Below, one piece after another: positions 3,570-47,373 of a DNA stretch of 63,871 nucleotides; the first letter of the stretch is position 1; each line of letters begins with the position of its first letter. The stretch lies in contig JAZKYN010000136.1 of NCBI GenBank assembly GCA_045612145.1, positions 1 through 63,871 on the forward strand, in the 5' to 3' direction. The notes under the pieces were generated by a model. The model was not told the origin of the DNA. It worked only from the letters and a program-made list of their open reading frames with translations, and did no database searches. This DNA is from Bacilli bacterium (GTDB lineage Bacteria > Bacillota_I > Bacilli_A > ML615J-28 > CAG-313). The translations under genes and the position numbers were made by a program.

Positions 3570-4232
3570 CTAGTAATCGCTGTTGCTAGTTAGGTTTTCC
3601 ATTATTGCTACACCGCTAGATGCACCAATACGAGTTGCCCCGTTTTCAACCATAACTTCTAAATCAGCTAAGTTTCTTACTCCACCGCTTGCTTTAACAC
3701 CCATTTCAGGTCCAACAGTTTCTCTCATTAATTTGATATCTTCAGCTGTAGCACCACCTGTACCAAATCCTGTTGATGTTTTAACAAATGTAGCATTAGC
3801 ACGTTTTGCTGCAAGACAGCAATTAACTTTTTCTTCATCTGTTAAATAGCAAGTTTCAATGATAACTTTAGTTGTTTTTCCAGCACTAGCTGCAACAACC
3901 ATTTTAATTTCATTTTCGATATAAGCAAAATCTCCTTCTTTTGCTTTACCTACGTTGATAACCATATCGATTTCATCAGCACCATTATTAATAGCATCCA
4001 TTGTTTCTAATGCTTTAACTTCTTTTGTATTAGCACCTAGAGGGAATCCAATAACTGTACAAACTAATACGTCTGATCCTTCTAAACATTCCTTTGCAAA
4101 TTTAATATTTGCAGGATTTACGCATACGCTTTTGAAATCATATTTTTTTGCTTCTTCACAAAGTTTTTTAATTTCCTCTTGTGTAGCAAAAGCTTTAAGT
4201 AATGTGTGGTCAATATATTTATTAATTTGCAT
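3570..4232 (-). CDS. deoC: deoxyribose-phosphate aldolase
   Basis: Class I aldolase motifs FVKTSTGF and VKASGGVR, with N-terminus [13 protein letters not shown]. The start is set at ATG 4232, with AGGAGA 6 nt upstream. The track ORF begins at 4253. Confidence 0.9.
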
Positions 4233-32010: not shown

Positions 32011-35000
32011 TTATCTACCTACGTATAAACCTTTAACCATTGAAGCTAATGTAATAGTTTGAGTTTGACCATCTTTAGTAATAGTTACTGTGTAAGTTAC
32101 ACATGTAGTTTCACTTGGTTGTTTAACAACTCTACCATTATCAGCAACGATATCAGTATTATTAGATTTCATAGATACTTCGTATCCTTCGAATTCTGTC
32201 ATCATTGTGTATTCAGATTCTACTAATTGTAAGAATTCACGCCAAATTTCACAATCATTTTCTAACATAGGTTGAGGACAGTTTTTACCAGAGAAGAAAT
32301 GATGTCCTTTAACTCTAGTCATATCTAAATCATTTCTAATCATAATGTCAGCAACTAATTGAGCAGTAATTTGCCATGTGTACCATAAGTCAGAACCTTT
32401 GTTTACACATGATTCAATACCGATTGAATTATAGTTACCACCACTTGAACAGATACGTCCTTCATATACTTGAGTATAGCACCACCATGTAGTACCCATA
32501 TAGTATTTACCATTTTCAACTTTCCATGGAAGACCCATATCATTGATAAATGATTCAGGAGTTCTATTAGCAAATCCAGATTGAGCGAATGCAGGTTGAG
32601 AAGAAATTGTACCATCAGCATTTAAGATATGATCTGTTCCTCTTGAACTATAGTTCCATGGTTTAGGCATTGGAATAGTAGTTTTTTTGCCATTGATTTC
32701 GAAATAGAAATCATCAGAAATTGTGATTACAGGTTCAGCTGGATCATTTGCTAATACTTCAATTCCAGTTTCCATCCATTTGAAATCACCAACTTGTGCA
32801 CGTGAACCAGAGTCACCAGCATGGAATGCAACATATTTTTCATCTGTACAATAGAAGATTCCATCGTTACCAGTTGTATAATGAATTGATGCAGCATTAG
32901 TAGTTGAGAAGTAGTTTGCATTTGCTGCAGCATCTGCACCAGATGCCATATTACCTGTATAGTGAACAGTTACCCATTCAACAGATGACATTTCACCACC
33001 ATTGTATGCAGTTTCTTGAGTTTTTGCATAGTATTTATCGCTAATAGTTAATTTATAGTTAGATAATAATTTAGAAACACTTCCAAAGATATCCATACTA
33101 TAAGCTCCACCGATATTTAAGTTATATCTAGTGAATACATTACTATTATTAGATTCAACAACTAATTCTAAAATTCCTTCAAGAGCTTCTTCTAATACAA
33201 CAACAACAAATTCTAATGTTAATGTTTCATTATCAGGGTCTGTTGCAACAATCTTAGCTTCACCAGCTTTTAATGCTGTAACAACACCGTTTGCATCAAC
33301 TGTAGCAATTTCAGGAGTTAATGAAGTCCATAATACATTTGCATTTGTACCATCTTTGCGAACAACTTGTGCATTTAATTGAATGCTATCGTCTTTTTCA
33401 ACGTATGAGTTTGTAGCGTAAGAACCATCAATATAATCTTCTGTATAAACAGTTAAATCAAATACAACGTCAATTTCACGGTTACCATATACTTTAACAG
33501 TAATAGTTGTTGTACCATTTGCTAAAGCAGTAATTAAACCTTTATTAGAAACTGTAGCAACTTCTTCATTACTTGAGAAGAATTCAACACTCTTATCTGT
33601 AGCGTTATCTGGAGCAATTGACCAAACTAATTGATGAGTTGTGAATAATAATAATTCAGTAACTTTATTAATTTCGATTGTAGTAGGTTTTACTTCTTCA
33701 GCCCATTTAGCATAGAATGTCTTATCACCAGTATCTGTTGATACAATTTGAGTAACAGGTTCACCATTGAATTCAGCATTATCATACCAACCTAAGAATT
33801 CAAGTCCATTTTCCATATGTAATGCAGGAAGAACTACGATTTGTCCACCACGGTAAGATGTTGGAATTTCTTGAGGAATCTTAGCTGCAGAACACATTTT
33901 TGGTAAGAATGATTTATAATATCCTTCACCAGTAGATGTCCATTGTAAGAATTGATGCATTCTAACCATTGTAGCATATGTATCAGTATAGAAGTTTTGA
34001 TCAGCATTAACACCTTTCATAGCTTCTGCGAATACTACGAAGAAATCAGACCATTTTTGATAGTATTTAGGAACATTTAAGAAATATTCTGTGCTACCAT
34101 CTTCTGCAGGATAATTACCTAATTCAGTATTACGTAATTTAATATCAGTATATGCAGCTAATTGTCCATCAATGTATGCTTTGTAATCTTCGAATGATTT
34201 AGTTTCTCCATTGCCTTGAGCCCATTCATATAAGTCAGCATATAATGCATCATAGATTTCGAATCTATCATATGCAGCACGTGAAGGCCATAAAGCATTA
34301 TCTTTGTTAGTAACAAATTCAACATTATAAATTTCACCTTCTAATACTGTGAAATCAGCAACTAATTCTAAGTTTCCTTTAGAATTTGCAGGAATTTCAA
34401 TTACTAATTCTCCATTTAATAACCAACCATTAAATTGGTGATTAGCTTTTGTAAGAGAAGGTAATGCGATAACCGCGTTATTTAAACTATTATAGTTATA
34501 AGTAAATGAATCTCTTGTTGAACCACCATTTAAATCATATGTGATAACCCAGAATTCAACAGTTTCTACTTCTGGTAAAGTTGGTTCAGAACCAAGAATA
34601 GTACCTTTAGTTTTTACATCAATAAAGTATTTATTTAATGTTTCTAAATCTGTAATAGCGTTACCATCATTGTCTTCATAATAGTTAGCACCAAAGATTG
34701 TATTGATTGGAGCAGTTGAATCATTATCACCTGATGTTCCATTTCTTGATGCGAAATAGTATGCATCTGGTAATCCAATGAATTTATTATTTAATACATT
34801 AACAACCCATGTACTTGAAGCATGGTTAGCAGCAGTACCATTGTTACGAAGTCTGATGTAATTTAAGCATCCTTCGAAGTGGTTGTTTTCAATATTAATT
34901 GTTGCACCTTTTTCTTGATAGTTACGTGCAGAGATTGCACCTGAGTATAATCCAGCATCTTTTGTACCAATATTAACGAATTTATTACCTTTAATATCGA

Positions 35001-38000
35001 TTGTAGTGTCATTAATGTTACCACCACCATAAATACGGAAGTAAATACCATTATATCCACCTAAAGTATCTTGTAAGAATTCATTATTAGTAAATGATAA
35101 GATACCATTATTGTATCCACCGTGATTAAATCTAATAGCATCACGTTCAAAGTTTTTAAATACGTTACCATCAAATGAAACATTTTGTACATAAGCTAAG
35201 TTAACGTTTGTATCTGAAACATTTTCAAATTTATTATTAAAGATAGCTAAATTTAATACTTGAGTAGAAGAAGATCCACCATTTAAGTACATAAATCCAT
35301 ATGTATAAGTATTAGTTTCAACCCATGCATTTGCAGCTTTTGTTGTATCATGTACATAGTTATTTTCAAATGTGAAATTAACTACTTGTCCACCAGAAAT
35401 TTTAGCATCACCAGTGAATGCAAGACCAACTAATTTTAAGTTTTTAGCAGCAGCAGCAATTTTAACAGCACCTGTTAATACAGCTTCAGCTTCTCTTACA
35501 CCTGAATTAGGGTTAACATATTGGTTAGGACCAGCAATTGTTAAGTTAGGAACTTTTATTTCAACATCTTCAGCATATGTACCAGCCATTAAGATAATCT
35601 TATCACCATCTTTTGCAGCAGCTAAAGCTTCAGCAAGAGTAGCATAATCTAGACCTTCACCAACATATAAAGCATCTTCTTTCCATGTAGCAACTAAAGT
35701 AACATCACCAGTTTGACCAATAGCTAAACTTTCAACGATTTGACCATTTAATGTCCAACCTAAGAATACATATTTGTCTTTAGTAGGAGTAGGAAGTTTT
35801 GCAAGACCAAGTTCTGAACTATAATATTCAGGAGCATTTTCAACTTCACCACCATTTAATTCATAAGTAATTTTGTATGAATTTTCTTTATCTACATATT
35901 GAGGAACTTCATCTTCATTTGCATAATAAGGATCGTATGTTGCATTTAAGAATGAACTTGCAAGAACTGCTACATCATAGAAGTTATATCTTGCATCAAT
36001 ATTATAAGCACATGCATTATTAATAAAGTATGTTGCAGAACAATTTAATAATTTATTATAGTTAACTGTAACTGGTTGAGTTTCAGCATTTCTGTTTGCA
36101 TTTGCATCTGATCTGTATAATGAATAAGAATTATCTACAGTATTGTATGCAAAGTTAACAGGAGATTTACCATCAGCAGCACCACTATAAGTTCCCATTC
36201 TTACAGCACAGTGAGAACCAGCTGTTTGACCATTATTTAAGAATGTATTATTAACAATTTCATAATTACCTTCTTGATAGTTAATGAACCAAATAACATA
36301 TTGAGCAAAGTTTTCGAAGTGGTTACCAATGATTTTAACATCACCTTTGATACCGAATTCACCTTTATGTGCATCAGCATCATCAGTTGTAATTTTAATA
36401 GCATCATTGTAATTTTTTCTACTTACATTGAAGTTACTATTTTTAATAGTTAATCCATCGATTTGTCCACCGAAGAAAATCATTGGACGACCATTTGTAA
36501 CGTCTGTTTGTTTAATATTTGAAATAACGATATTTTCATATACAGCACCAGCAGTGTATGTATAGAAGAATAATGGAGCATTTGTTGACCATGTTTCAGG
36601 GTTAGTTAATGAATCTTGAATTACAACGTTTGTAATTGTAGGATTAGCAACACCATTATCATTACCTTTAATACGTCCATTTTCAGTTAATTTAATACCA
36701 TCGATTGTAACATCATTAGCACTAATTACAACATCACCAGTAAATACTGTTTCGTTAGTTCTTTCAACTTGGTTAGGGTTAACACCAGCGTTAGCACCTA
36801 AAATAGTAACAGATTTTGTAATATTAATTGTTGTATAAGTACCAGCAGCAATTTTGATTGTATCTCCATCAACTGCAGCTTCTAATGCTTCTTCAAATGT
36901 TGCATATGCATCAGGATTATTAGCATCAACAACTAATTCTTTTGCAGGAACATCTAATTTATTCCATGCAGCATATAAAGTAACATCTTCTTCGCAATCA
37001 GCAGCGATTGATGTAATAGCTTGTGTACAAGCTTCATCAGCAAACCAACCTAAGAATTCATATCCAGCTTTTGTTGGAGTAGGAAGTGTTGCAAGACCAA
37101 CACCTAAAAGATAATCTTTAGGAGCACCTTCAGGAAGTTTACCACCATCTAATACATAGTTAATAGCTTTAGCAGTTTCAGCTTCCCATTTAGCAACTAA
37201 TTCATAATCTCTATTTTCAAGTTTTTCAACTAAAGTTTCACCTTCATACCAACCTAAGAATTTATATCCTTCACGAGTAGGAATAGGTAAAACAACAGCT
37301 TCATTATAACCAAATTCTACTTTAGCTCCTTCAGGTAAAATTCCTTCAGCAACATCGTAAGAAATTGTATATTTTAAAGTAGCAGTATCAACCCATTTTG
37401 CAGTTAATGTGCAATTTGATCTAACAGCTGTAACTAAATCTTCACCAATATACCAACCTAAGAATAAATGACCTTCTTTAACTGGAGTAGGTAAAGCATC
37501 TTTAGCACAATAAGTATTATCCATATCGCCTAATAGAGCATTAAATCTAGCAATATTTTCAGCAACTGAGTAATCTACCATATAACCATCGTACATACCT
37601 TTTTCAGCAGGAGCAAGATTTTCATTAATTAAACCTTGAATCCAATAACGGAAGATAGTTCTTGCATTACCACCATCATTAATATTAACAGCATTTACAT
37701 CACCAGCGATCATACCATCTAACATTTTGAATAAGTCAGTGTAATATTCATTACCTAAGAAGTTATTAGCAGCAGCTGCAGCTTGCATTTCAACTTTTGC
37801 AAATTCAAAGAACCATTTATATTTAGCAAGCATTTCTGCATTACTCCAAACATATTTAATATTTGGATGAGATGTTCCTTTGAAGTTTTCTTTTGTAGTT
37901 ACTTTAGCATCAGATTTACCTGTGCTATTAAAATCTTTTAATAATTCTTCAGCAAATGAATTTAAATCTTGACCTTCCCAATGACCACCATCAAGTTCGA

Positions 38001-41000
38001 ATTCAACTGTCCATTCGTAGTCATCGATATGAATCCATTCAGCAACTAATACATCATCACCAGTTGCATTTTGAACTTTTACACCATCTAAATACCAACC
38101 TAAGAAAATATAATTTTCTTTTACAGCTACTGGTAATTCTTCATTTGGTTCAACAGTTCTTTGAACTGGGCAATAAACATTAGTGAATTTTTCCATATTA
38201 TATTCATTAGAGAAATCTAACATAAATGGATAATCACCATTACCAACAATCTTATGGTTCATTAAACCTTCTAACCAGAAACGGAATGCAGTTCTACCTT
38301 CAGCATATGAACCACCAATTGTAGCAGTATTACCAGCGATTAAACCTTCTAACATTTCAACTGTATTTGTATAACGAGCAGATTCAGTTACACCATTTGC
38401 TTCACCTGCAGCTTTGATTTCTTCAAGTGCAAATACAAATAACCAATGATATTTTTCTAACATTTCTGTATTATTAAATACATATTTAATATTTGGATGA
38501 GAAGTTGATTTAAAGCTTTCTCTTGTAGTAACAACTGCATCACTTGCACCAGTACTATTGAAATCTTTAACTAATTCTTCAGCAAATTGATCTAAATTCT
38601 TTTCAAATTGACCACCGTTTAAATCGAAGATTACTTCGTAACCAGTTTGTCCAATTTCTTTCCATTTAGCAGTTAATTTATAATTTTCATTACCAATTTT
38701 ATTAACATATTCGCCTAATTGTGTCCAGCCTAAGAATTCATATCCTTCTTTAACTGGTTCAGGAATTACAACTTCTTGTCCATATTCAAATGATGTAGGT
38801 CCTTCTGTTCCTTCTAACCATGAACCTTCATTTAAATCATATTGAATTTCAAATTTAATAATTTCCCATTTAGCAGTTAAACTAGCATCACCAGATACTT
38901 TTTCAACTTTATCATCACCATCAAACCAACCTAAGAAGATATAACCAGTACGAACAGGAGTTGGTAATTTATCTTCAACAGATAATTTAAATACGCTGTT
39001 TTGAGCAGCTAAAGCAGCTTCAAATCTTTCCATATTTTCAGCAACAGAGAAGTCAGTCATGAATGGATAATCGCTATTACCAACGATTTTTTTGTTCATT
39101 AATCCTTCTAACCAGAATCTGAAAGCAGTTCTACCTTCAGCATATGAACCACCAATTGTTGCAGTATTACCAGCAATTAATCCTTCTAACATTTCAACTG
39201 TATTAGTATAACGAGCTTCACTTGTAGTACCATTAGCTTTTGCAGCAGCTTTGATTTCTTCAAGCGCTAATACAAATACCCAATGATATTTTTCTAACAT
39301 TTCAGCTTTATCAAATACATATTTAATGTTTGGATGAGAAGTAGCTTTAAAGTCTTCTTTAGTAGTAACTTTAGCATCACTTGCACCAGTGCTATTGAAA
39401 TCTTTAACTAATTCTTCAGCAAATGCATCTAAATCCATACCTTCAACGTTAAGAGCACCACCTTGTGCATCTAATGCAACATTATATTTAGCAGCTTCCC
39501 ATTTAGCAACTAATGTTGCTTCATAAGTAGCAGTTTCTACTTGAGTTTCACCATCAAACCAACCTACAAATACATAATGTTCTCTTTCGATTGCAGGTAA
39601 TTTTGCACCATGTTCTAATACTTGAGATGGCATAGATGCTCCACCTTCTTGAACATCATAGAATTTTTGTAAATTTTCAGCAACAGAGAAGTCAGTCATG
39701 AATGGATAATCTTTATTACCAACAATTTTTTGGTTCATTAATCCTTCTAACCAGAAACGGAATGCTGTTCTTCCTTCAGCGTAATCTCCACCAATTGTTG
39801 CAGTATTACCAGCGATTAATCCTTCTAACATTGCAACCGTATTAGTGTAACGAGCTTCACTTGTAGTACCATTTGCTTTTGCTGCAGCTTTAATTTCTTC
39901 AAGCGCAAATACAAATACCCAATGATATTTTTCTAACATTTCAGCTTTATTAAATACATATTTGATGTTTGGATGAGATGTAGCTTTGAAATCTTCTTTA
40001 GTAGTAACTTTTGCATCGCTTGCACCAGTACTATTGAAATCTTTAACTAATTCTTCAGCAAATTCATCAAGAGTAAGAGGTTCAGAATATTCTGTACCAT
40101 CGTTGTAATCAAAATAAATTTTATATTCATTAACTTTCCATGTAGCAACAAGTGTTAAAGCACCTGAAGTACCAGCAGGTATCTTATCGATTTTTTCACC
40201 ATTTAATTCCCATCCTGTGAATGTATAACCTTCACGTAATGGATCACATAAAATGATTTCATCTAATTTGCTATATTTATCAGGATTTGAATCACTATTT
40301 GTACCACCGTTTAATTCATAAGTAATTTCAAATCTTTCAGAGATATATTTTGCCCATAATTCGATATCACCAGTTGTTCCAAGAGGTAATTCATAAATAG
40401 CTTCACCAGTTAATTCAGCATTAGTATACCAACCAGCAAATTCTTGACCAGCAGGAGCACCAGGGATTGCAAGAGTATAAGGTAAATCTTCAACAGTATA
40501 TGTTGTTGGAGCAAGAACTACTTCTTCATGAATTAATTCAAAATGATCCCATACTTTACCCCAAACTTCTTCTGATGTATAGTCACTACCATAACCAGCA
40601 GTAACACCAGCATCTTTAGAAGATCTTGTTAATAAGTTTTGAAGTTCTCCACGAGCTTCAGCTTGACCATCGTCTTTTGTTAATTCAGCAGCACCACGAG
40701 CAACACGTGCTTCATTAATGATAACTAATAATCCATTCCATTTAGCACCGTATTCAGCACTTGTTAAGAAGTTATAACCAGCACTTGAACCATCGCCCAT
40801 ATAAGATCTTGCAAAGAAGTCAGATCCATCAGATTTAACTACTTTACCAGAATGTTTGTTGAAATCAACAACGAAATCAGCAACTAATGCAGCCCAATCA
40901 GCGTAATCACCAACTTGAATTGTGATAGTAGGAAGAGTACCTTCACCAGCATTATATTTAATTGAATATTCGATTGCTTCCCATGCAGCGTAAACTGTTT

Positions 41001-44000
41001 TTTCGCCTTTATCTAAAGCAGTGAATTCAGTTACTGCTACTGTGCAAGCAGCGTCTAAGAACCAACCTTTAAATTCATATCCTGAACGTGTAGCACCTTT
41101 AGAAAGAGCAACACCAGTTTCTTCAACGTATGATGTAGGAGCACCAGCTTCTAATGCACCACCGTTTAATTCATAATTAATAGCATAAGTATCAAATGCG
41201 ATTACTGAATCAGACCATCTAGCATATAAAGTAATATCGCCAATTAGATCTAATGAAATAGCTTCTACTTTACCATTTTTAAGATCACTATTTGTATACC
41301 AACCAACAAATGTAGCATCCTTTTTATTAGGAGTAGCAAGTGCAACTGGTAAATCATTAATTGTATATTCGTTTACAGCTTCAGTACCAACTTGAATGTC
41401 TTTATTAGGACATGCAGCCCAGAATGCTTCACCATCAACTTCTTTAAAGTTTAGAGAAACTGGAGAAACAGATGTTAACATTGTTTCTTGTAATAAAGCA
41501 GCAAAGTTAGATCTTGCATATTTATTAAAGTTAGCAGCACCAGCAGTTAATGATAAGTAAGCTTTACCTGTATATCCTGCTTCTGCAGCATATTCAGCAA
41601 CATATTCTAATACCCAACCCCATTTAGCAGCCATTTCAGCGTTATTGAAGAATGAGTATAATCCGTATTTAACTGATTTACCGTAGAAGTTAGCAGCAGT
41701 AACATCAGCAACACCAGTTAATGTAGCATAATCATTAATGAATTCAGCAACGAATGCATCAAATGAATCGTATAATTCAGCAACTTCGTCTCTAACGAAT
41801 TGTCCACCATTTAATTCATAAGTAATTTCATAAACTGTTAATTCCCATGCAGCATATAATTTAACACTTTCAAGTAATCCAGCTTCGATAGCTTCAACTT
41901 TTTCAGTGCATGCAGCATCAGAATACCAACCTAAGAATGTATAACCTAATTTAGTAGGAACAGGAAGAGTAGCTAAACCTTCAGCGTATGTAAATGATGT
42001 AGCAGCACCTTCTGGTAATACACCTTCATTTAATACATATTCAACAGCAATTGGATCATGAGACCATTTAGCTTCTAATACAACATCTTTAGCGATTAAA
42101 GCATTGATAGTTTCAACTTTTTCACCATTTAAATACCAGCCTAAGAATTCGTTTCCAGCTTTAGCAGGAACTGGTAATGTGATTTCGCCATCAGTATAAA
42201 TGAATGAAGTTACAGGATCAACAGCACCTGGTTTTTTAACTAAATCCCAGAAACCATTTCCGATAGCATCTAATGAATAATCAGCAGTTACATAATTTTT
42301 ATTTTTTGAATATTGAATAGCACCAACAAAACCTCTTAATTCATAAGCAATTGAGTAAATATAGTTACTATTTGCAGCATTTAACTCTGATTGACTATTA
42401 TATTTATTGAAGTTTTCCCATGCTTTTTTATTAGCAGAACCAGCTACGCTTGTAATATAATCTACTAACCAAGCCCATTTAGTTCTATATTCAGCATTAT
42501 ATAAGAATAATGATGCATCACTAATTTCACTCCAAGAACCTAGAGCTGAGAATGTTGCAGCTGTATGAGATTTACCTCTTGCAGTATTATAATCATTTAA
42601 GAAATCAGCAACTAATTCTTCACGAGATGAATATAAATAATTGCTTAATAATCCACCATTGTAGTTATATGTGATTGTATATTGATCAAGTTCAAATTTA
42701 GCAGTTAATTCAATATCACCAGCAGAACCTTTTTCAATTTTTTCAACTTTATTACCATCAGCATCATACCAACCTAAGAATTTTTCACCAAGTTTGTAAG
42801 CAACAGGTAATTCGAATGTTTCTGTATTAACTGTGAAAGTATTTACTAATTCAAAATTTAATAATTGATCCCAGAAACCATTAGCTAATTCATCATTAGT
42901 AAAGTCAGCACTCTTTGGCCAGCTTGCGCGACAATCTTCAAATAAGAATGCACCTAAAGAATATCTCCAGAATGCTTCACTACCACTGATTAAGCTATCT
43001 TTGCTTCCGCCTTCAGTAGACTCGATGATATAGTCTTTTAACCAAGCCCATTTAGCAGCATATTTAGCATCTGAGAAGAATCCATAAATAGCACTAAATA
43101 CGTTAGCGAATCCATATGCGTCTCCTGAATCATCAACCATGCAAGTAGGTTTGTTTGTTTTACCTGCCCATGCCATAGCATCATTTAAGAAATCATCAAC
43201 CATAGCAGCACGATCTTTACCATATTCATATAAATCACCAGGGTTAAGTGACCAGTCACCACCATTTAAGTTATATGAAATAGTGTATTCAGCTAATTCC
43301 CATTTAGCAACTAATTCAACGTTACCAATAGTTAATTTTTCAACTTTGTTTTCACCAGCATACCAACCTAAGAAATTATATCCATGTTTAGTTGGAGCAA
43401 CAAGAGTAACAGGAGCATCAACAACTGTGTATGCAGTTGGGTTAGTTTCAGCACCTTCACCACCAGCTAAATCATAACTTACAGTGTAAGTAATAATATC
43501 CCATTTAGCATAAAGTGTTAAGTCTTCTCTTGCATCAGCAGGGATTTCTGTTAATGCTTCACCAGTAAATGCAGCGTTATCATACCAACCAGCAAATGTA
43601 TAACCTTCTTTTGTAGCTTCAGCTAAAGCGATAGGAAGATTAAATACGTTGTAACCAGCAGGGTTAGTAGCAGCATTTGTACCACCGTCTAAAACGTAGT
43701 TAACTGTGAAATCAGACTCTAAAACTTCAAGTTCAAATTTATATGTACGATATTCTTCTTCGTATAATAAATTTTCTGCAACAACTGTAATAGTTACTTT
43801 ACCAGCTTTTAAAGTAGTAATTAAACCATTTTCATCGATTGCAGCAACTTCTGGATTAGATGATGCATAAGTTAATTTAACATTTTCTTCTGCTTCTGCA
43901 GGAGTAAATGTGCATTCAACTTGGCTAGTTTTTCCTTTAAGGATACTGCCTTCAGCACCAACAAATTCCATTTCAGGAAGTCTGTCTTGAATAACTGTGA

Positions 44001-44322
44001 TAACAACTGTATCATATGCGATTGCTTTATTAGCAACATATGCTTTTACCACAGTTTGACCAACGCTTACACCAGTAACTTTTGCGTCACTATAAGAAGC
44101 GATTAAATCATTTTGTGAAACGTAAACAAGATCTACTTGTCCAGCAGCTTCACCTTTGTTTACTGTTGGAACTACATCGATAGTTTCACCAACAACGATT
44201 ACATATTCATCAGTATCAAACTTAACTTCAACGTAATCATTAACTTTTGTACAGCTAGCGATACTAACTAGTAAACCAACAATAGTTAATAATAAGAAAA
44301 ATCTTTTTCTAATGTTTAACAT
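32011..44322 (-). CDS. giant (4103 aa) surface lipoprotein. In order: 2 Ig-like domains, 19 Listeria-Bacteroides repeats (9 with a nested helical module), 2 beta-helix modules, 2 more Ig-like domains and a C-terminal Amidase_2-like domain.
   Basis: Uninterrupted 12.3-kb ORF with GGAGA 5 nt before the ATG. Signal peptide with lipobox IASC (Cys24). Recurrent G(Y/x)xFxGW(Y/F)...L(Y/x)AKW repeats. Beta-helix N-caps DGDTIKIAAGTYT and DGDKIILMAGTYA. Amidase motifs VTVHYTGN, AFHAGD, NSIGIE and KNCP. Confidence 0.95.
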   Translation of the reverse strand: MLNIRKRFFLLLTIVGLLVSIASCTKVNDYVEVKFDTDEYVIVVGETIDVVPTVNKGEAAGQVDLVYVSQNDLIASYSDAKVTGVSVGQTVVKAYVANKAIAYDTVVITVIQDRLPEMEFVGAEGSILKGKTSQVECTFTPAEAEENVKLTYASSNPEVAAIDENGLITTLKAGKVTITVVAENLLYEEEYRTYKFELEVLESDFTVNYVLDGGTNAATNPAGYNVFNLPIALAEATKEGYTFAGWYDNAAFTGEALTEIPADAREDLTLYAKWDIITYTVSYDLAGGEGAETNPTAYTVVDAPVTLVAPTKHGYNFLGWYAGENKVEKLTIGNVELVAKWELAEYTISYNLNGGDWSLNPGDLYEYGKDRAAMVDDFLNDAMAWAGKTNKPTCMVDDSGDAYGFANVFSAIYGFFSDAKYAAKWAWLKDYIIESTEGGSKDSLISGSEAFWRYSLGAFLFEDCRASWPKSADFTNDELANGFWDQLLNFELVNTFTVNTETFELPVAYKLGEKFLGWYDADGNKVEKIEKGSAGDIELTAKFELDQYTITYNYNGGLLSNYLYSSREELVADFLNDYNTARGKSHTAATFSALGSWSEISDASLFLYNAEYRTKWAWLVDYITSVAGSANKKAWENFNKYNSQSELNAANSNYIYSIAYELRGFVGAIQYSKNKNYVTADYSLDAIGNGFWDLVKKPGAVDPVTSFIYTDGEITLPVPAKAGNEFLGWYLNGEKVETINALIAKDVVLEAKWSHDPIAVEYVLNEGVLPEGAATSFTYAEGLATLPVPTKLGYTFLGWYSDAACTEKVEAIEAGLLESVKLYAAWELTVYEITYELNGGQFVRDEVAELYDSFDAFVAEFINDYATLTGVADVTAANFYGKSVKYGLYSFFNNAEMAAKWGWVLEYVAEYAAEAGYTGKAYLSLTAGAANFNKYARSNFAALLQETMLTSVSPVSLNFKEVDGEAFWAACPNKDIQVGTEAVNEYTINDLPVALATPNKKDATFVGWYTNSDLKNGKVEAISLDLIGDITLYARWSDSVIAFDTYAINYELNGGALEAGAPTSYVEETGVALSKGATRSGYEFKGWFLDAACTVAVTEFTALDKGEKTVYAAWEAIEYSIKYNAGEGTLPTITIQVGDYADWAALVADFVVDFNKHSGKVVKSDGSDFFARSYMGDGSSAGYNFLTSAEYGAKWNGLLVIINEARVARGAAELTKDDGQAEARGELQNLLTRSSKDAGVTAGYGSDYTSEEVWGKVWDHFELIHEEVVLAPTTYTVEDLPYTLAIPGAPAGQEFAGWYTNAELTGEAIYELPLGTTGDIELWAKYISERFEITYELNGGTNSDSNPDKYSKLDEIILCDPLREGYTFTGWELNGEKIDKIPAGTSGALTLVATWKVNEYKIYFDYNDGTEYSEPLTLDEFAEELVKDFNSTGASDAKVTTKEDFKATSHPNIKYVFNKAEMLEKYHWVFVFALEEIKAAAKANGTTSEARYTNTVAMLEGLIAGNTATIGGDYAEGRTAFRFWLEGLMNQKIVGNKDYPFMTDFSVAENLQKFYDVQEGGASMPSQVLEHGAKLPAIEREHYVFVGWFDGETQVETATYEATLVAKWEAAKYNVALDAQGGALNVEGMDLDAFAEELVKDFNSTGASDAKVTTKEDFKATSHPNIKYVFDKAEMLEKYHWVFVLALEEIKAAAKANGTTSEARYTNTVEMLEGLIAGNTATIGGSYAEGRTAFRFWLEGLMNKKIVGNSDYPFMTDFSVAENMERFEAALAAQNSVFKLSVEDKLPTPVRTGYIFLGWFDGDDKVEKVSGDASLTAKWEIIKFEIQYDLNEGSWLEGTEGPTSFEYGQEVVIPEPVKEGYEFLGWTQLGEYVNKIGNENYKLTAKWKEIGQTGYEVIFDLNGGQFEKNLDQFAEELVKDFNSTGASDAVVTTRESFKSTSHPNIKYVFNNTEMLEKYHWLFVFALEEIKAAGEANGVTESARYTNTVEMLEGLIAGNTATIGGSYAEGRTAFRFWLEGLMNHKIVGNGDYPFMLDFSNEYNMEKFTNVYCPVQRTVEPNEELPVAVKENYIFLGWYLDGVKVQNATGDDVLVAEWIHIDDYEWTVEFELDGGHWEGQDLNSFAEELLKDFNSTGKSDAKVTTKENFKGTSHPNIKYVWSNAEMLAKYKWFFEFAKVEMQAAAAANNFLGNEYYTDLFKMLDGMIAGDVNAVNINDGGNARTIFRYWIQGLINENLAPAEKGMYDGYMVDYSVAENIARFNALLGDMDNTYCAKDALPTPVKEGHLFLGWYIGEDLVTAVRSNCTLTAKWVDTATLKYTISYDVAEGILPEGAKVEFGYNEAVVLPIPTREGYKFLGWYEGETLVEKLENRDYELVAKWEAETAKAINYVLDGGKLPEGAPKDYLLGVGLATLPTPTKAGYEFLGWFADEACTQAITSIAADCEEDVTLYAAWNKLDVPAKELVVDANNPDAYATFEEALEAAVDGDTIKIAAGTYTTINITKSVTILGANAGVNPNQVERTNETVFTGDVVISANDVTIDGIKLTENGRIKGNDNGVANPTITNVVIQDSLTNPETWSTNAPLFFYTYTAGAVYENIVISNIKQTDVTNGRPMIFFGGQIDGLTIKNSNFNVSRKNYNDAIKITTDDADAHKGEFGIKGDVKIIGNHFENFAQYVIWFINYQEGNYEIVNNTFLNNGQTAGSHCAVRMGTYSGAADGKSPVNFAYNTVDNSYSLYRSDANANRNAETQPVTVNYNKLLNCSATYFINNACAYNIDARYNFYDVAVLASSFLNATYDPYYANEDEVPQYVDKENSYKITYELNGGEVENAPEYYSSELGLAKLPTPTKDKYVFLGWTLNGQIVESLAIGQTGDVTLVATWKEDALYVGEGLDYATLAEALAAAKDGDKIILMAGTYAEDVEIKVPNLTIAGPNQYVNPNSGVREAEAVLTGAVKIAAAAKNLKLVGLAFTGDAKISGGQVVNFTFENNYVHDTTKAANAWVETNTYTYGFMYLNGGSSSTQVLNLAIFNNKFENVSDTNVNLAYVQNVSFDGNVFKNFERDAIRFNHGGYNNGILSFTNNEFLQDTLGGYNGIYFRIYGGGNINDTTIDIKGNKFVNIGTKDAGLYSGAISARNYQEKGATINIENNHFEGCLNYIRLRNNGTAANHASSTWVVNVLNNKFIGLPDAYYFASRNGTSGDNDSTAPINTIFGANYYEDNDGNAITDLETLNKYFIDVKTKGTILGSEPTLPEVETVEFWVITYDLNGGSTRDSFTYNYNSLNNAVIALPSLTKANHQFNGWLLNGELVIEIPANSKGNLELVADFTVLEGEIYNVEFVTNKDNALWPSRAAYDRFEIYDALYADLYEWAQGNGETKSFEDYKAYIDGQLAAYTDIKLRNTELGNYPAEDGSTEYFLNVPKYYQKWSDFFVVFAEAMKGVNADQNFYTDTYATMVRMHQFLQWTSTGEGYYKSFLPKMCSAAKIPQEIPTSYRGGQIVVLPALHMENGLEFLGWYDNAEFNGEPVTQIVSTDTGDKTFYAKWAEEVKPTTIEINKVTELLLFTTHQLVWSIAPDNATDKSVEFFSSNEEVATVSNKGLITALANGTTTITVKVYGNREIDVVFDLTVYTEDYIDGSYATNSYVEKDDSIQLNAQVVRKDGTNANVLWTSLTPEIATVDANGVVTALKAGEAKIVATDPDNETLTLEFVVVVLEEALEGILELVVESNNSNVFTRYNLNIGGAYSMDIFGSVSKLLSNYKLTISDKYYAKTQETAYNGGEMSSVEWVTVHYTGNMASGADAAANANYFSTTNAASIHYTTGNDGIFYCTDEKYVAFHAGDSGSRAQVGDFKWMETGIEVLANDPAEPVITISDDFYFEINGKKTTIPMPKPWNYSSRGTDHILNADGTISSQPAFAQSGFANRTPESFINDMGLPWKVENGKYYMGTTWWCYTQVYEGRICSSGGNYNSIGIESCVNKGSDLWYTWQITAQLVADIMIRNDLDMTRVKGHHFFSGKNCPQPMLENDCEIWREFLQLVESEYTMMTEFEGYEVSMKSNNTDIVADNGRVVKQPSETTCVTYTVTITKDGQTQTITLASMVKGLYVGR
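32260..32990 (-). other. C-terminal N-acetylmuramoyl-L-alanine amidase (Amidase_2/PGRP-like) domain with an internal insertion
   Basis: Motif order is EWVTVHYTGN ... SIHYTT ... YVAFHAGD [about 120 aa] NYNSIGIESC ... VKGHHFFSGKNCPQP. In T7 lysozyme and CwlA, as I recall them, the HxGD and NSIG(V/I)E motifs are only about 10 residues apart. Confidence 0.7.
33200..33700 (-). other. two Big_2-like Ig domains preceding the amidase
   Basis: SIAPDNATDKSVEFFSSNEEVATVSNKGLITALANGTTTITV and LWTSLTPEIATVDANGVVTALKAGEAKIVA are typical Big_2 signatures. Confidence 0.65.
33930..34266 (-). repeat. helical-module copy 9 (distal, diverged), nested in the repeat after beta-helix 2
   Basis: Encodes RFEIYDALYADLYEWAQGNGETKSFEDYKAY...PKYYQKWSDFFVVFAEAMKG...MVRMHQFLQW. 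It lies between a YNVEF strand and LPALHMENGLEFLGWYDN. Confidence 0.6.
34620..35690 (-). other. right-handed parallel beta-helix module 2
   Basis: N-cap YATLAEALAAAKDGDKIILMAGTYAEDVEIKVPNLTIAGPNQYVNPN, followed by Asn/Gly-rich coils of about 22-25 aa (NNYV, NNKFENV, DGNVFKNF, NNEF, GNKFVNI, NNHFEGC, NNKFIG). Confidence 0.65.
35930..36950 (-). other. right-handed parallel beta-helix module 1
   Basis: N-cap YATFEEALEAAVDGDTIKIAAGTYTTINITKSVTILGANAGVNPN, followed by repetitive coils (ANDVTIDGI, ITNVVIQDS, YENIVISNI, GLTIKNSNF, IIGNHFENF, VNNTFLNN). Confidence 0.65.
37540..37962 (-). repeat. helical-module copy 8 (more diverged)
   Basis: Encodes NSFAEELLKDFNSTGKSDAKVTTKENFKGTSHPNIKYVWSNAEMLAKYKWFFEFAKVEMQ...YSVAENIARF. 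Confidence 0.8.
38180..38592 (-). repeat. helical-module copy 7
   Basis: Encodes DQFAEELVKDFNSTGASDAVVTTRESFKSTSHPNIKYVFNNTEMLEKYHWLFVFALEEIKAAGEANG...FSNEYNMEKF. Confidence 0.85.
39010..39429 (-). repeat. helical-module copy 6
   Basis: Encodes DAFAEELVKDFNSTGASDAKV...FSVAENMERF. My by-eye alignment to copy 5 shows about 30 mismatches in about 395 nt. Confidence 0.85.
39650..40068 (-). repeat. helical-module copy 5 (first of four recent copies)
   Basis: Encodes DEFAEELVKDFNSTGASDAKVTTKEDFKATSHPNIKYVFNKAEMLEKYHWVFVFALEEIKAAAKANG...FSVAENLQKF. Confidence 0.85.
44251..44322 (-). other. lipoprotein signal peptide of the 4103-aa protein
   Basis: MLNIRKRFFLLLTIVGLLVSIASC has a basic n-region, a hydrophobic core and the lipobox I-A-S-C, with Cys at residue 24. 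Confidence 0.8.
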
Positions 44323-44640: not shown

Positions 44641-47373
44641 TTATCTAAAGAATTCTACATTATCAATAGCTATACGAGCATTTTGATTAGATGTATAAGT
44701 ACTTGAAGCTTCAGTGTAAATTCTTACAAATTTAGCATCAACTAAATCTACAACAATTTCAGTATATTTAGTAGCATCAATTTTGCTAGCTGATCCTAAA
44801 TCTACTGATGTCCAAGTTTTTCCATCTGTAGAATATTGTACTTCAAATTTTTTGATTTTTGAGGCATGCGAACTCTTATCACTTGAACTCCACCAAGATA
44901 CATCAAATTTAATTCTTGACACTGCTTCATTAAATTTAAATTCAAAGAATGAATTTTTTGTACTATTATTTTTTCTTGTAGGGCAAAGAACACCAAAAGA
45001 TCCAGTATTTTTATGAGGAGCATTTGTAGAATTTGTAATTTGAGCTTGATGACCAGTAATTGTAACACTCTTTCCTGATAATTCTTCTTTAACTGATAGT
45101 GATTTATTATTTGTATAACCAGTTAAATTTAAGCTACCAAATGTATATTGTTCACATAATTCAGGTTCTGAAACATAAACATACTCAATTGAAGCAACAT
45201 AAACTGTATAACTTGGCATATTATGAGAAATACTAACATATGTATAATGTTGTGTATCTGGATAAATTTCATAAACAGCTTGACCACTAACTGTAGACAT
45301 AGTTGTTGCGTAATCACTATATGAATTATCTGTACCAAATTCAATTAATAATGCATCTTTATTATTATATCCAGTTCTTCCAGTTGTTAATGTAATTATA
45401 ACTTTTTCTAATTTTTTAGTAAATGCTGTCGCATTAGCAATTGAAGAATGAATATTATTTTTATATCTCATTTGGATATCATCGTTATTATATTTACCAA
45501 GTTGGATGTAATCAAATTTAACACCTGTAATAACTTTTGAACCGTCAGCATAATTTCCTAATCCTAATGCTTCATCGGTAACAACAACAGATTTAACATC
45601 TTCAGGATCTTTAGCAACAATAACAATTTCGTATACTTTAGTTGCAACAGCTTTGTTATATTTGCAAGTACCAACTAATTTGATTACAGCATCACCATCA
45701 AAATTTTCTGGGCGAGTAACTTTTAATACACCGTTTTCGATTTTTGCATTTTCATAATCTTCTGCAAGAGCAAATGTTACATTTTCAACTTGTGGAAGTT
45801 TGTAATCTTCTACTAAATTCTTTTCAATTGAAATATTTTCTAATACTTCTTCACCTCTCATCTCATCTGTTACTAATACTTCTTCATATAAGTGAGAAAT
45901 ATAGTTAGTTGAGCTTGATAAGTAACTTGAGTAACTAGCACTAAATGTTGTATAAGAATTATATGTACCTAAGAATAAAGTATCACTTCCAAGTTTTGCA
46001 GTGAATGTATTGTATTGTTCATTATATTGCCATACAGTTGAAGGACTAGCGTTAAATTTAATGTTATTGTATGATCCACTCTTTTCTAAACAAATATATT
46101 TAACTGATCCATTTTTTAAAGTTAATTTTAAGTAATATCCACCAGTAGTTTCAACAACGTTAAGTTTAGCAGCACTTGCAAAACTTGTTGTAGTTGCACC
46201 ATAGTAACCACTTAATGTACCAGTCATGTATAATGTTTGTTTTTTGTTACCTTGATACATACCTAAAACATAATCTTTTGATGTATCAAATGTTTCAGCA
46301 ACTCTAATTTTAAATTCACCAAATACTGGTTTAAGAGTTAAATCACCACTTGTACCATATCCAATTTCTGTGATTAACGCATCTAATTCTTCATTTGCTT
46401 CACCATTTTCATCAATGATTGCCCATCCTAAGAATCTCCATCCAGTTTGAGTTGCTTTACGTGTTGGTAAATCAAATTCATCAAAATATGTATATTCTAC
46501 TGTTTCTTCAGTATCTGTATAAGTAATAGTATATTTAGCGATTTCCCATTTAGCATAGAATAAATAATCATGTGCATTTGAAGTATCAACAGTTTCAACT
46601 GCATTACCAGCTAAATTTTTATTTCCATACCATCCTAAGAAATTATAACCAGTTTTAACAGGAGTTGGAAGAGTAATAACTTCTTCGCCAGCTCTAAATT
46701 GATTTTCAAATTCTTCTTCTAATTCTCCACCTTCTAAGTTAAGTGTAATATTATAAATATTAAGTACTTTATATTCAAATTTATATTCTAGATATTGATC
46801 AGTATTTTTCTTATCAACAATTTTTGCAGTAAATACAACTTTACCTTTTGCTAAAGCAGTAATGTTACCTTCAGCATCAATAGTTGCAACTTTTTCATTT
46901 GAACTTGAAAATTGCATTTCAACATTTGGATTTTGATGAGAATATTCATAAACTAATTTATTTTCATCACCAATATATAAATTTCCTTCTAAGCCTGCAG
47001 GACCTTCAACATCAAATGTTGCTTCAGGCATATCAATAATTTCATATACATCAATTTCAGCTGTAGCTGCGATATATTTTTTTCCTTCGATCCATACTTT
47101 AACAGTTGTTGAGCCTACGCCTACTGCAGTTAATTCTCCTTCATTACATTCAACAACAGTATCATCTTCAACATCCCATTGGAATTTATAATTTGTTTCA
47201 CCAGCATTTTTTAAAATAGGTTCAAGTGTTAAATTATCTCCTAATTCTAAATCATAGCTAGTTTTCTCAAAATCTAATTGTATAGAATTTGAAATGTCTC
47301 CACAACTTGCAAGTGTAAATGCAAAAGCAAATACTGCAATTAATAAAAACAATCTAATATAATTTTTTTTCAT
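44641..47373 (-). CDS. 910-aa surface lipoprotein. In order: 2 Ig-like domains, 2 Listeria-Bacteroides repeats, an unassigned central region and C-terminal jelly-roll (discoidin/CBM-like) modules.
   Basis: Signal peptide MKKNYIRLFLLIAVFAFAFTLASC (lipobox LASC, Cys24). Big_2-like VATIDAEGNITALAKGKVVFTA. Repeats GYNFLGWYGN...LFYAKW and GWRFLGWAII...LKPVFG. The C-terminus is KKFEVQYSTDGKTWTSV...AKFVRIY...IAIDNVEFF. Confidence 0.9.
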   Translation of the reverse strand: MKKNYIRLFLLIAVFAFAFTLASCGDISNSIQLDFEKTSYDLELGDNLTLEPILKNAGETNYKFQWDVEDDTVVECNEGELTAVGVGSTTVKVWIEGKKYIAATAEIDVYEIIDMPEATFDVEGPAGLEGNLYIGDENKLVYEYSHQNPNVEMQFSSSNEKVATIDAEGNITALAKGKVVFTAKIVDKKNTDQYLEYKFEYKVLNIYNITLNLEGGELEEEFENQFRAGEEVITLPTPVKTGYNFLGWYGNKNLAGNAVETVDTSNAHDYLFYAKWEIAKYTITYTDTEETVEYTYFDEFDLPTRKATQTGWRFLGWAIIDENGEANEELDALITEIGYGTSGDLTLKPVFGEFKIRVAETFDTSKDYVLGMYQGNKKQTLYMTGTLSGYYGATTTSFASAAKLNVVETTGGYYLKLTLKNGSVKYICLEKSGSYNNIKFNASPSTVWQYNEQYNTFTAKLGSDTLFLGTYNSYTTFSASYSSYLSSSTNYISHLYEEVLVTDEMRGEEVLENISIEKNLVEDYKLPQVENVTFALAEDYENAKIENGVLKVTRPENFDGDAVIKLVGTCKYNKAVATKVYEIVIVAKDPEDVKSVVVTDEALGLGNYADGSKVITGVKFDYIQLGKYNNDDIQMRYKNNIHSSIANATAFTKKLEKVIITLTTGRTGYNNKDALLIEFGTDNSYSDYATTMSTVSGQAVYEIYPDTQHYTYVSISHNMPSYTVYVASIEYVYVSEPELCEQYTFGSLNLTGYTNNKSLSVKEELSGKSVTITGHQAQITNSTNAPHKNTGSFGVLCPTRKNNSTKNSFFEFKFNEAVSRIKFDVSWWSSSDKSSHASKIKKFEVQYSTDGKTWTSVDLGSASKIDATKYTEIVVDLVDAKFVRIYTEASSTYTSNQNARIAIDNVEFFR
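44644..45100 (-). other. C-terminal discoidin/CBM-like beta-sandwich of the 910-aa protein
   Basis: The pattern IKKFEVQYSTDGKTWTSV ... YTEIVVDLVDAKFVRIYT ... ARIAIDNVEF resembles F5/8 type C carbohydrate-binding modules. Confidence 0.5.
46330..46775 (-). repeat. two Listeria-Bacteroides repeats in the 910-aa protein
   Basis: YNITLNLEGG...LPTPVKTGYNFLGWYGN...LFYAKWEIAKYTITY...LPTRKATQTGWRFLGWAI...LTLKPVFG. Confidence 0.7.
47302..47373 (-). other. lipoprotein signal peptide of the 910-aa protein
   Basis: Lipobox L-A-S-C with Cys at residue 24, the same position as in the 4103-aa protein. Confidence 0.8.

Follow-up and report, generated by a model that had tools for sequence, protein, structure and literature searches.

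The window analysed here, a stretch of 63,871 nucleotides (positions 1 to 63,871 of contig JAZKYN010000136.1, assembly GCA_045612145.1), comes from a metagenome-assembled genome (MAG) of a Bacilli bacterium in the uncultured order ML615J-28, and contains a gene for a giant surface lipoprotein of 4103 residues. The gene is flanked by dnaJ and rsmE and lies amid housekeeping genes. Its product starts with a signal peptide ending at a lipobox Cys, as in bacterial lipoproteins (lipobox MLNIRKRFFLLLTIVGLLVSIASC), and continues with a Big_2 domain, at least 14 Flg_new (Listeria-Bacteroides) repeats, beta-helix modules, three Big_2 domains, and finally a 389-residue cassette built around an amidase domain that is split in two by a nested domain. 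No LysM, SH3b, SLH, CWB, or PG_binding domain was detected across the whole protein by a domain scan. The cassette, which appears to be the common C-terminal module of a large family of amidases, is the subject of this analysis.

The original prediction for this locus, which was made from the sequence alone, had described an N-terminal lipobox anchor and, at the far end of the protein, five amidase motifs in a fixed order with an insertion of about 120 residues between HAGD and NSIGIE. The anchor was found as described, and all five motifs are present in that order in the minus-strand open reading frame (ORF) 32011-44322, far beyond chance: VTVHYTGN (residues 3784-3791; nt 32973-32950), SIHYTT (residues 3812-3817), AFHAGD (residues 3832-3837; nt 32829-32812), NSIGIESC (residues 3965-3972; nt 32430-32407), and GHHFFSGKNCPQP (residues 4006-4018; nt 32307-32269). 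Homology to Amidase_2 was confirmed with the Pfam model PF01510, which matched the last 399 residues in two stretches (E=1.7e-18, 67.6 bits, cut-off 26) and scored 61 bits when the whole protein was the query. The domain, which is of the XlyA/PlyL type, corresponds to residues 3783-4042. By using phmmer and PDB sequences, XlyA (PDB 3hmb) positions 25-85 could be aligned with residues 3780-3839 and positions 86-147 with residues 3960-4021, leaving exactly 120 residues between the two halves, whereas XlyA itself has no gap between positions 85 and 86. A profile of 80 relatives yielded an identical split against XlyA (E=8e-28). Thus, the contiguous catalytic domain of approximately 130-180 residues that characterizes Amidase_2 is here divided by a nested domain of 120-123 residues, and the protein is a variant member of this family rather than a non-member.

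The cassette comprises, in order, an N-extension of approximately 68 residues, the amidase N-half, the nested domain, the amidase C-half, and an Ig-like domain of approximately 60 residues (Table 1). The amidase is therefore part of a C-terminal cassette, in agreement with its predicted position, although it is not the last element of the protein. The Ig-like domain scored 22 bits with Pfam aBig_2, which is under the cut-off of 27; it resembles domains of 55-60 residues in AbnA and Am2136 (Foldseek), and its strands were predicted by AlphaFold2 (AF2). An AF2 model of the 389-residue cassette, which used an 80-sequence alignment, had a mean predicted local distance difference test (pLDDT) of 94.2 and a predicted template modelling score (pTM) of 0.93, so that one rigid body is predicted. 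When the PDB was searched with Foldseek, the cassette core matched XlyA (3rdr) with a target-normalised TM score of 0.91 and a root mean square deviation of 1.8 A, and PlyL with a target-normalised TM score of 0.82; approximately 125 of the 278 columns of the 3rdr alignment have no counterpart. The model thus points to a mixed alpha/beta fold superposable on solved amidases.

Table 1. Features of the lipoprotein gene and its C-terminal amidase cassette (window coordinates)
Feature	Residues	Position (nt)	Strand	Basis
4103-aa surface lipoprotein gene		32011..44322	minus	ORF
Lipoprotein signal peptide and lipobox, MLNIRKRFFLLLTIVGLLVSIAS followed by C	1-24	44251..44322	minus	sequence reading
C-terminal cassette	3715-4103	32014..33180	minus	conservation, AF2
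Cassette N-extension, conserved in subfamily, no Pfam family	3715-3782	32977..33180	minus	
Amidase_2 N-half, with H3787 and HAGD	3783-3837	32812..32976	minus	
Nested beta-rich domain	3838-3960	32443..32811	minus	XlyA gap, AF2
Amidase_2 C-half	3961-4042	32197..32442	minus	
Small Ig-like beta domain	4043-4103	32014..32196	minus	aBig_2, Foldseek, AF2
Zn ligand	H3787	32962-32964	minus	
Groove-end Asn	N3963	32434-32436	minus	
Catalytic Glu	E3970	32413-32415	minus	
Zn ligand	H4007	32302-32304	minus	
Lys	K4013	32284-32286	minus	
Zn ligand	C4015	32278-32280	minus	

The residues expected of an active zinc amidase are in place. H3787, H4007, and C4015 align with the zinc ligands of XlyA and PlyL, C4015 lying eight residues after H4007, and phmmer aligned the catalytic E3970 with PlyL E90 and K4013 with the transition-state Lys of PlyL, K135; the roles of these two PlyL residues and of AmiE E119, N112, and W105, as well as the use of Asp as a zinc ligand, have been described (PMC2837410, PMC12203907). 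Among 144 family representatives, each pair of which is at most 50% identical, H3787, E3970, H4007, K4013, and C4015 are identical in every one, and H3834 of the HAGD motif and N3963 (seven residues before the Glu) are conserved in 143 and 141, respectively. An invariant catalytic set of this kind argues strongly, at the sequence level, that catalysis is under selection and that the role is not one of binding alone, as in some peptidoglycan recognition proteins (PGRPs). It is thus very improbable that the cassette is a non-catalytic, PGRP-like wall anchor that holds the distal end of surface proteins in an organism without sortase. Such an anchor would agree with the failure to find a sortase gene (PF04203) in the genome, an absence that is provisional since the MAG is 88% complete, and with the occurrence of the cassette as a C-terminal module common to many surface proteins, in the manner of sorting or anchoring domains. 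However, non-lytic PGRPs lack the zinc ligands (PMC2837410), while all zinc and catalytic residues are retained family-wide here, and wall-less Acholeplasma laidlawii, another carrier of the cassette, offers no wall for anchoring. The cassette is instead proposed to be an active zinc-dependent N-acetylmuramoyl-L-alanine amidase with the XlyA/PlyL (T7-lysozyme/PGRP) fold, as its sequence and predicted structure suggest.

The closest solved relatives are XlyA from the B. subtilis PBSX prophage (3hmb, 3rdr) and PlyL/PlyG from a prophage and a phage of B. anthracis (1yb0, 2ar3, 2l47), which have in common with the cassette the Amidase_2 fold, a His/His/Cys zinc site (H+8), the catalytic Glu, the Lys, and the groove-end Asn. 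On the other hand, XlyA and PlyL have a contiguous catalytic domain of approximately 150 residues and a separate C-terminal wall-binding domain, lack a signal peptide, and serve in phage lysis, whereas the cassette has a nested domain of approximately 120 residues as well as its own N-extension and Ig-like domain, forms the C-terminus of a lipoprotein, and is found in a housekeeping context. Because of these differences in context, signal peptide, and known wall-binding domain (absent here), it does not belong with the XlyA/PlyL endolysins. The kinship with prophage lysins might also indicate that a surface protein has accidentally acquired the remains of a prophage endolysin, but this origin can be given almost no weight. 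When 50,697 phage records were searched with tblastn, the amidase C-half alone was matched, in six records, and a Foldseek search of BFVD found nothing covering the insert (query-normalised TM score <=0.39). Moreover, the gene lies between dnaJ and rsmE, its small paralogs are located amid housekeeping genes and not in prophages, and hundreds of cellular members are conserved with a fixed architecture.

The nested domain occupies the loop that joins the HAGD strand to the GGNxNSIGIE strand. Its length varies from 80 to 141 residues across the family, and the copy in the window is one of a subgroup of long inserts that have an additional loop, here at about residues 3888-3920. When modelled in isolation (124 residues), the insert was predicted by AF2 to form approximately nine strands and two short helices (pLDDT 95.4, pTM 0.87). 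A Foldseek search of this isolated model against 350,542 PDB chains gave no match (best E=1.1, TM <=0.25). No Pfam family was found for either the insert or the N-extension at E<=10, NCBIfam had nothing in the cassette, and a profile search of PDB sequences matched only the canonical amidase halves. The insert was not found outside amidases: all eight hits of an insert hidden Markov model (HMM) in the genome of the window, and all six weaker partial hits elsewhere, proved to be full cassettes. To judge from the model and these searches, the insert would be a nested autonomous domain without recognised relatives in the databases searched (PDB, Pfam, NCBIfam, and phage/viral data). A search of the available literature on the insert or on Acholeplasma amidase lipoproteins found no paper. 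Thus, neither the database nor the literature searches found a characterised amidase subfamily in which the insertion is already known: nothing retrieved, whether a structure, a Pfam or NCBIfam model, or a paper, describes it. The enzyme class itself is already known, and cassette members carry amidase annotations in public records (GenBank); the novelty lies in the nested domain, predicted to be an autonomous fold without a match that would lie at the groove's specificity end, in the fixed cassette, and in the occurrence of the latter in a wall-less Mollicute.

The location of the insert suggests a function. In AmiE, a strictly conserved Asn (N112) sits at the groove's lower end, seven residues before E119; this Asn is common to bacterial amidases and PGRPs, including PlyL, and forms hydrogen bonds with the carbonyl groups of residues 2 and 3 in the stem peptide (PMC2837410). 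W105, in the loop just before this Asn, touches the side chain of residue 3 at the cross-bridge exit (PMC2837410). N3963 is likewise seven residues upstream of E3970, and the insert ends three residues before N3963, and so the nested domain appears, from the alignment and the spacing, to replace the W105 loop. AmiE/AmiA of staphylococcal Atl (3lat, 4knk, 4knl) have the fold family and catalytic logic in common with the cassette (TM ~0.6), as well as the Asn seven residues before the catalytic Glu; however, AmiE has a short W105 loop where the cassette family has a whole domain, and Atl relies on separate R repeats for wall targeting. Because the insert ends next to the Asn that binds the peptide stem, the best reading, by analogy with AmiE and from sequence position, is that it may be a built-in substrate-recognition or wall-binding domain at the peptide/cross-bridge end of the groove. 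The insert is also more variable than the core in both sequence and length (mean identity 0.43-0.51 for the insert vs 0.60-0.70 for the core), a pattern that fits a specificity element. Its best-conserved segment is the aromatic-rich GTTWWCYTQVxEGRICS, which runs into the Asn. A conserved disulfide between C3948 and C3958 was considered and rejected, since the two positions do not covary (57 CC, 32 xC, 28 Cx, 27 xx).

Two functions had been offered for the insertion in the original prediction, a substrate-selectivity subdomain and an autoinhibitory one. Sequence and model agree with the former insofar as the insert seems to be a discrete domain placed where substrate choice could be affected. 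The latter, in which the insert would be a lid or regulatory domain that keeps the groove blocked until a partner, proteolysis, or contact releases it, is rather unlikely. Many amidases are tightly regulated, and the insertion point adjoins the peptide-binding end of the groove, as a lid would require. However, AF2 predicts a rigid placement (pTM 0.93) with high pLDDT at both junctions, neither a conserved protease site nor a nearby partner gene was found, the gene contexts being housekeeping ones, and the insert is present in every member, small stand-alone ones included. In the substrate-recognition reading, the nested domain would lengthen the groove at its peptide end and influence the choice of peptidoglycan, and may take the place of the wall-binding domains that phage and autolysin amidases carry as separate units.

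The insertion is not peculiar to this protein but belongs to a large conserved subfamily with a fixed cassette of approximately 390 residues. A HMMER search of 1.84 billion representatives (clusters at 50% identity) found 253 representative clusters at E<1e-30. Of the 150 matches listed, nearly all cover the full 271-residue query together with its insert, in proteins of 350-4100 residues and close to the C-terminal end. A start with a lipobox (regular-expression search) was found in 106 of the 144 representatives. By scanning one genome per species, 528 genomic loci were confirmed, the best 80 of which come from gut MAGs labelled Bacilli, Erysipelotrichaceae, 'Mollicutes', Coprobacillus sp. 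CAG:698, Staphylococcus sp. CAG:324, and some Clostridia. All 79 distinct loci are similar over query positions 1-389 (residues 3715-4103) and end 0-22 residues before the stop. Within the order of the window, the insert HMM matched 89 of 106 genomes and 24 of 31 genera, with 1-9 copies each. The genome of the window (1.69 Mb, 165 contigs) has eight insert-bearing copies, one each on contigs C136, C124, C21, C148, C112, C109, C106, and C159, whose insert sequences are homologous with up to 74% identity. In this gut lineage, which has a reduced genome and apparently lacks sortase, the cassette would be a common warhead on adhesin-like stalks that are lipid-anchored and differ greatly in length.

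Several observations on related copies and loci were also made. A 690-residue lipoprotein of the same genome (C105:4576-6645, minus strand; lipobox ITGC) has an uninterrupted, canonical Amidase_2 domain (70.8 bits), and thus split and canonical forms coexist in one genome. Two copies in housekeeping contexts are stand-alone cassettes without a signal peptide (C109:10066-11205, minus strand, 379 residues; C106:8140-9156, plus strand, 338 residues), and ORFs of about 350-400 residues representing such cassettes occur in many genomes of the order. The insert of the stand-alone copies is divergent, with YFNxTYKKIANRGGN in place of WWCYTQVxEGRICSxGGN. These copies may represent a cytoplasmic muropeptide-recycling or mother-cell-lysis enzyme, possibly the ancestral form. 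The neighbouring gene in the window (44641-47373, minus strand) encodes a protein of 910 residues with an F5/8 type C domain at its end, whereas in sister genomes (L088 G030:C1, L089 G001:C20, and L090 G003:C2) an ORF of 760-910 residues with a terminal amidase cassette sits approximately 9 kb from the giant cassette-bearing gene, which may reflect swapping of C-terminal modules. In addition, three cassette loci (L047, L033, and L081) are in MAGs labelled Prevotella sp. or Bacteroidales. At least one mislabelled-looking MAG record (JAMPDF010000001.1, 557,177 bp) is the same sequence as contig G003:C2 of a low-GC Bacilli relative of the same genus, and these labels look wrong.

The genome of the window encodes two penicillin-binding protein (PBP) transpeptidases, one FtsW/RodA, and Mur ligases, and a wall-less producer was accordingly rejected for this genome. 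Three small Amidase_3 genes and one NlpC/P60 gene are also present. A published survey assigns the family CAG-698 to the order ML615J-28; this order was predicted to be mostly walled and to have lost the srtA/B sortases, and the ancestor common to ML615J-28, RFN20, and RF39 was predicted to have lost most PBPs and lyt/cwl hydrolases (PMC10868615). The same study predicts that RF39 and ML615J-28, whose precursor synthesis has gaps, could be forced to scavenge muropeptides (PMC10868615). The heavy use of lipoboxes for surface display in the cassette family fits the lack of a detectable sortase, which in turn agrees with the srtA/B loss described for the order.

These features leave some room for a self-directed autolysin that trims or turns over its own wall, such as outer layers or the septum, an explanation that is compatible with the amidase and substrate-recognition reading but which, taken by itself, is considered a minority possibility. 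The insert would then fit the peptidoglycan chemotype of the producer, and stalk length would only set the distance from the membrane. The wall-synthesis genes mentioned above, the near-universal presence of the cassette in the order, and the reported loss of most classical lyt/cwl hydrolases in the lineage (PMC10868615), which would make replacements needed, all speak in its favor. On the other hand, an intact-looking site is retained in wall-less A. laidlawii; 6-9 copies per genome on highly diverse adhesin-like stalks would be unusual for housekeeping autolysins; and the Amidase_3 and NlpC/P60 genes are still present in the genome.

The occurrence of the cassette in A. laidlawii bears most directly on the question of a foreign substrate. 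In a class-wide sample of 401 genomes, the insert HMM matched just four genomes outside the order of the window: G138, which is walled, and G158, G213, and G285, which belong to another family. Two of the latter (G285 and G213) were identified as A. laidlawii by exact protein look-up. Strain PG-8A has three carriers, ABX80683.1 (867 residues), ABX80684.1 (1153 residues), and ABX81138.1 (2025 residues), which are annotated as N-acetylmuramoyl-L-alanine amidase, InlB B-repeat-containing protein, or Ig-like domain-containing protein; no functional study of them was found in the literature search. The genes for the first two are in tandem (L097, G285:C1:47500-55300), and the third is approximately 500 kb away. 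The A. laidlawii cassettes match the cassette profile with E=1e-73 to 1e-79, those of the three PG-8A proteins with E=1e-77 to 1e-79, and, as in the family of the window, form the C-terminal end of lipobox proteins with Flg_new/Ig stalks and include the nested domain. They retain the first His, HAGD, GGNxNSxGIE, and H-x5-K-x-D. They differ from the cassette in the window in having an insert of approximately 95 residues and an Asp in place of the Cys as the third ligand, with spacing unchanged (an Asp also occurs here in the G138 cassette and, as D179, in AmiE), and their genomes lack peptidoglycan synthesis genes. Acholeplasma is established as wall-less, and the gene content agrees: neither FtsW/RodA nor a PBP transpeptidase was found in the A. 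laidlawii genomes (99% complete), while G001, G049, and G138 have both.

A wall-less organism that keeps an apparently functional amidase, as its sequence suggests, must use it on foreign peptidoglycan or on another substrate, and in A. laidlawii the cassette probably cuts the walls of other bacteria. Since the cassette is kept there, the family may act at least partly on non-self peptidoglycan. This lends indirect support to the view in the original prediction that the enzyme may act beyond the wall of its producer. The target would be neighbouring cells or wall debris, for lysis or for muropeptide scavenging.

Taken together, the combined reading, in which the cassette is an active amidase with a nested substrate-recognition domain, serves as a common warhead, and acts on partly foreign peptidoglycan, is considered the probable one, with reasonable rather than strong confidence. 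Several points weigh against it. The organism of the window makes peptidoglycan itself, and a self-directed autolysin role there is fully possible. The two small, signal-less paralogs indicate that surface proteins are not the only setting of the cassette, and the placement of the insert relative to the groove derives from sequence position and from published work on AmiE and PGRPs. Within Acholeplasmataceae, carriers are scattered: 6 of 81 genomes and 2 of 20 genera have the cassette, and in the A. laidlawii genus 5 of the 9 sampled genomes do. The cassette probably reached the A. laidlawii group by transfer, and its use in A. laidlawii need not equal that in the walled lineage of the window. 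A single cassette in another Acholeplasmataceae genus (G466:C8:14927-15268) has an insert nearer to the gut-Bacilli type (E=1e-34, compared with approximately 1e-17 for A. laidlawii), which suggests either a separate transfer or bin contamination. A bolder version, in which the cassette is a dedicated module for harvesting or attacking foreign peptidoglycan in the reduced-genome gut Bacilli and the A. laidlawii group, with the nested domain selecting the type of prey, is regarded as speculative and on balance doubtful. In this version, the lipid-anchored adhesin stalks would attach to nearby cells or wall fragments, and the cassette would remove stem peptides or muropeptides from them.

Peptidoglycan amidases rank among the most thoroughly studied enzymes of bacteria; even so, these findings describe a large uncharacterised amidase subfamily that is near-universal in one uncultured gut order and also occurs in Clostridia-labelled MAGs. 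The existence of a cultivable, wall-less carrier makes the question of own versus foreign wall experimentally tractable. If the cassettes act on the wall of their producer, they would be the autolysins so far missing from this lineage, whose classical ones are reported lost. With a foreign target, they would explain the muropeptide supply of sortase-less, precursor-auxotrophic gut Bacilli, and the nested domain would provide a new substrate-recognition domain for engineered lysins. Should the cassette prove to be a dedicated harvesting or attack module, it would imply surface-tethered, contact-dependent feeding on, or killing of, walled neighbours by wall-poor or wall-less bacteria.

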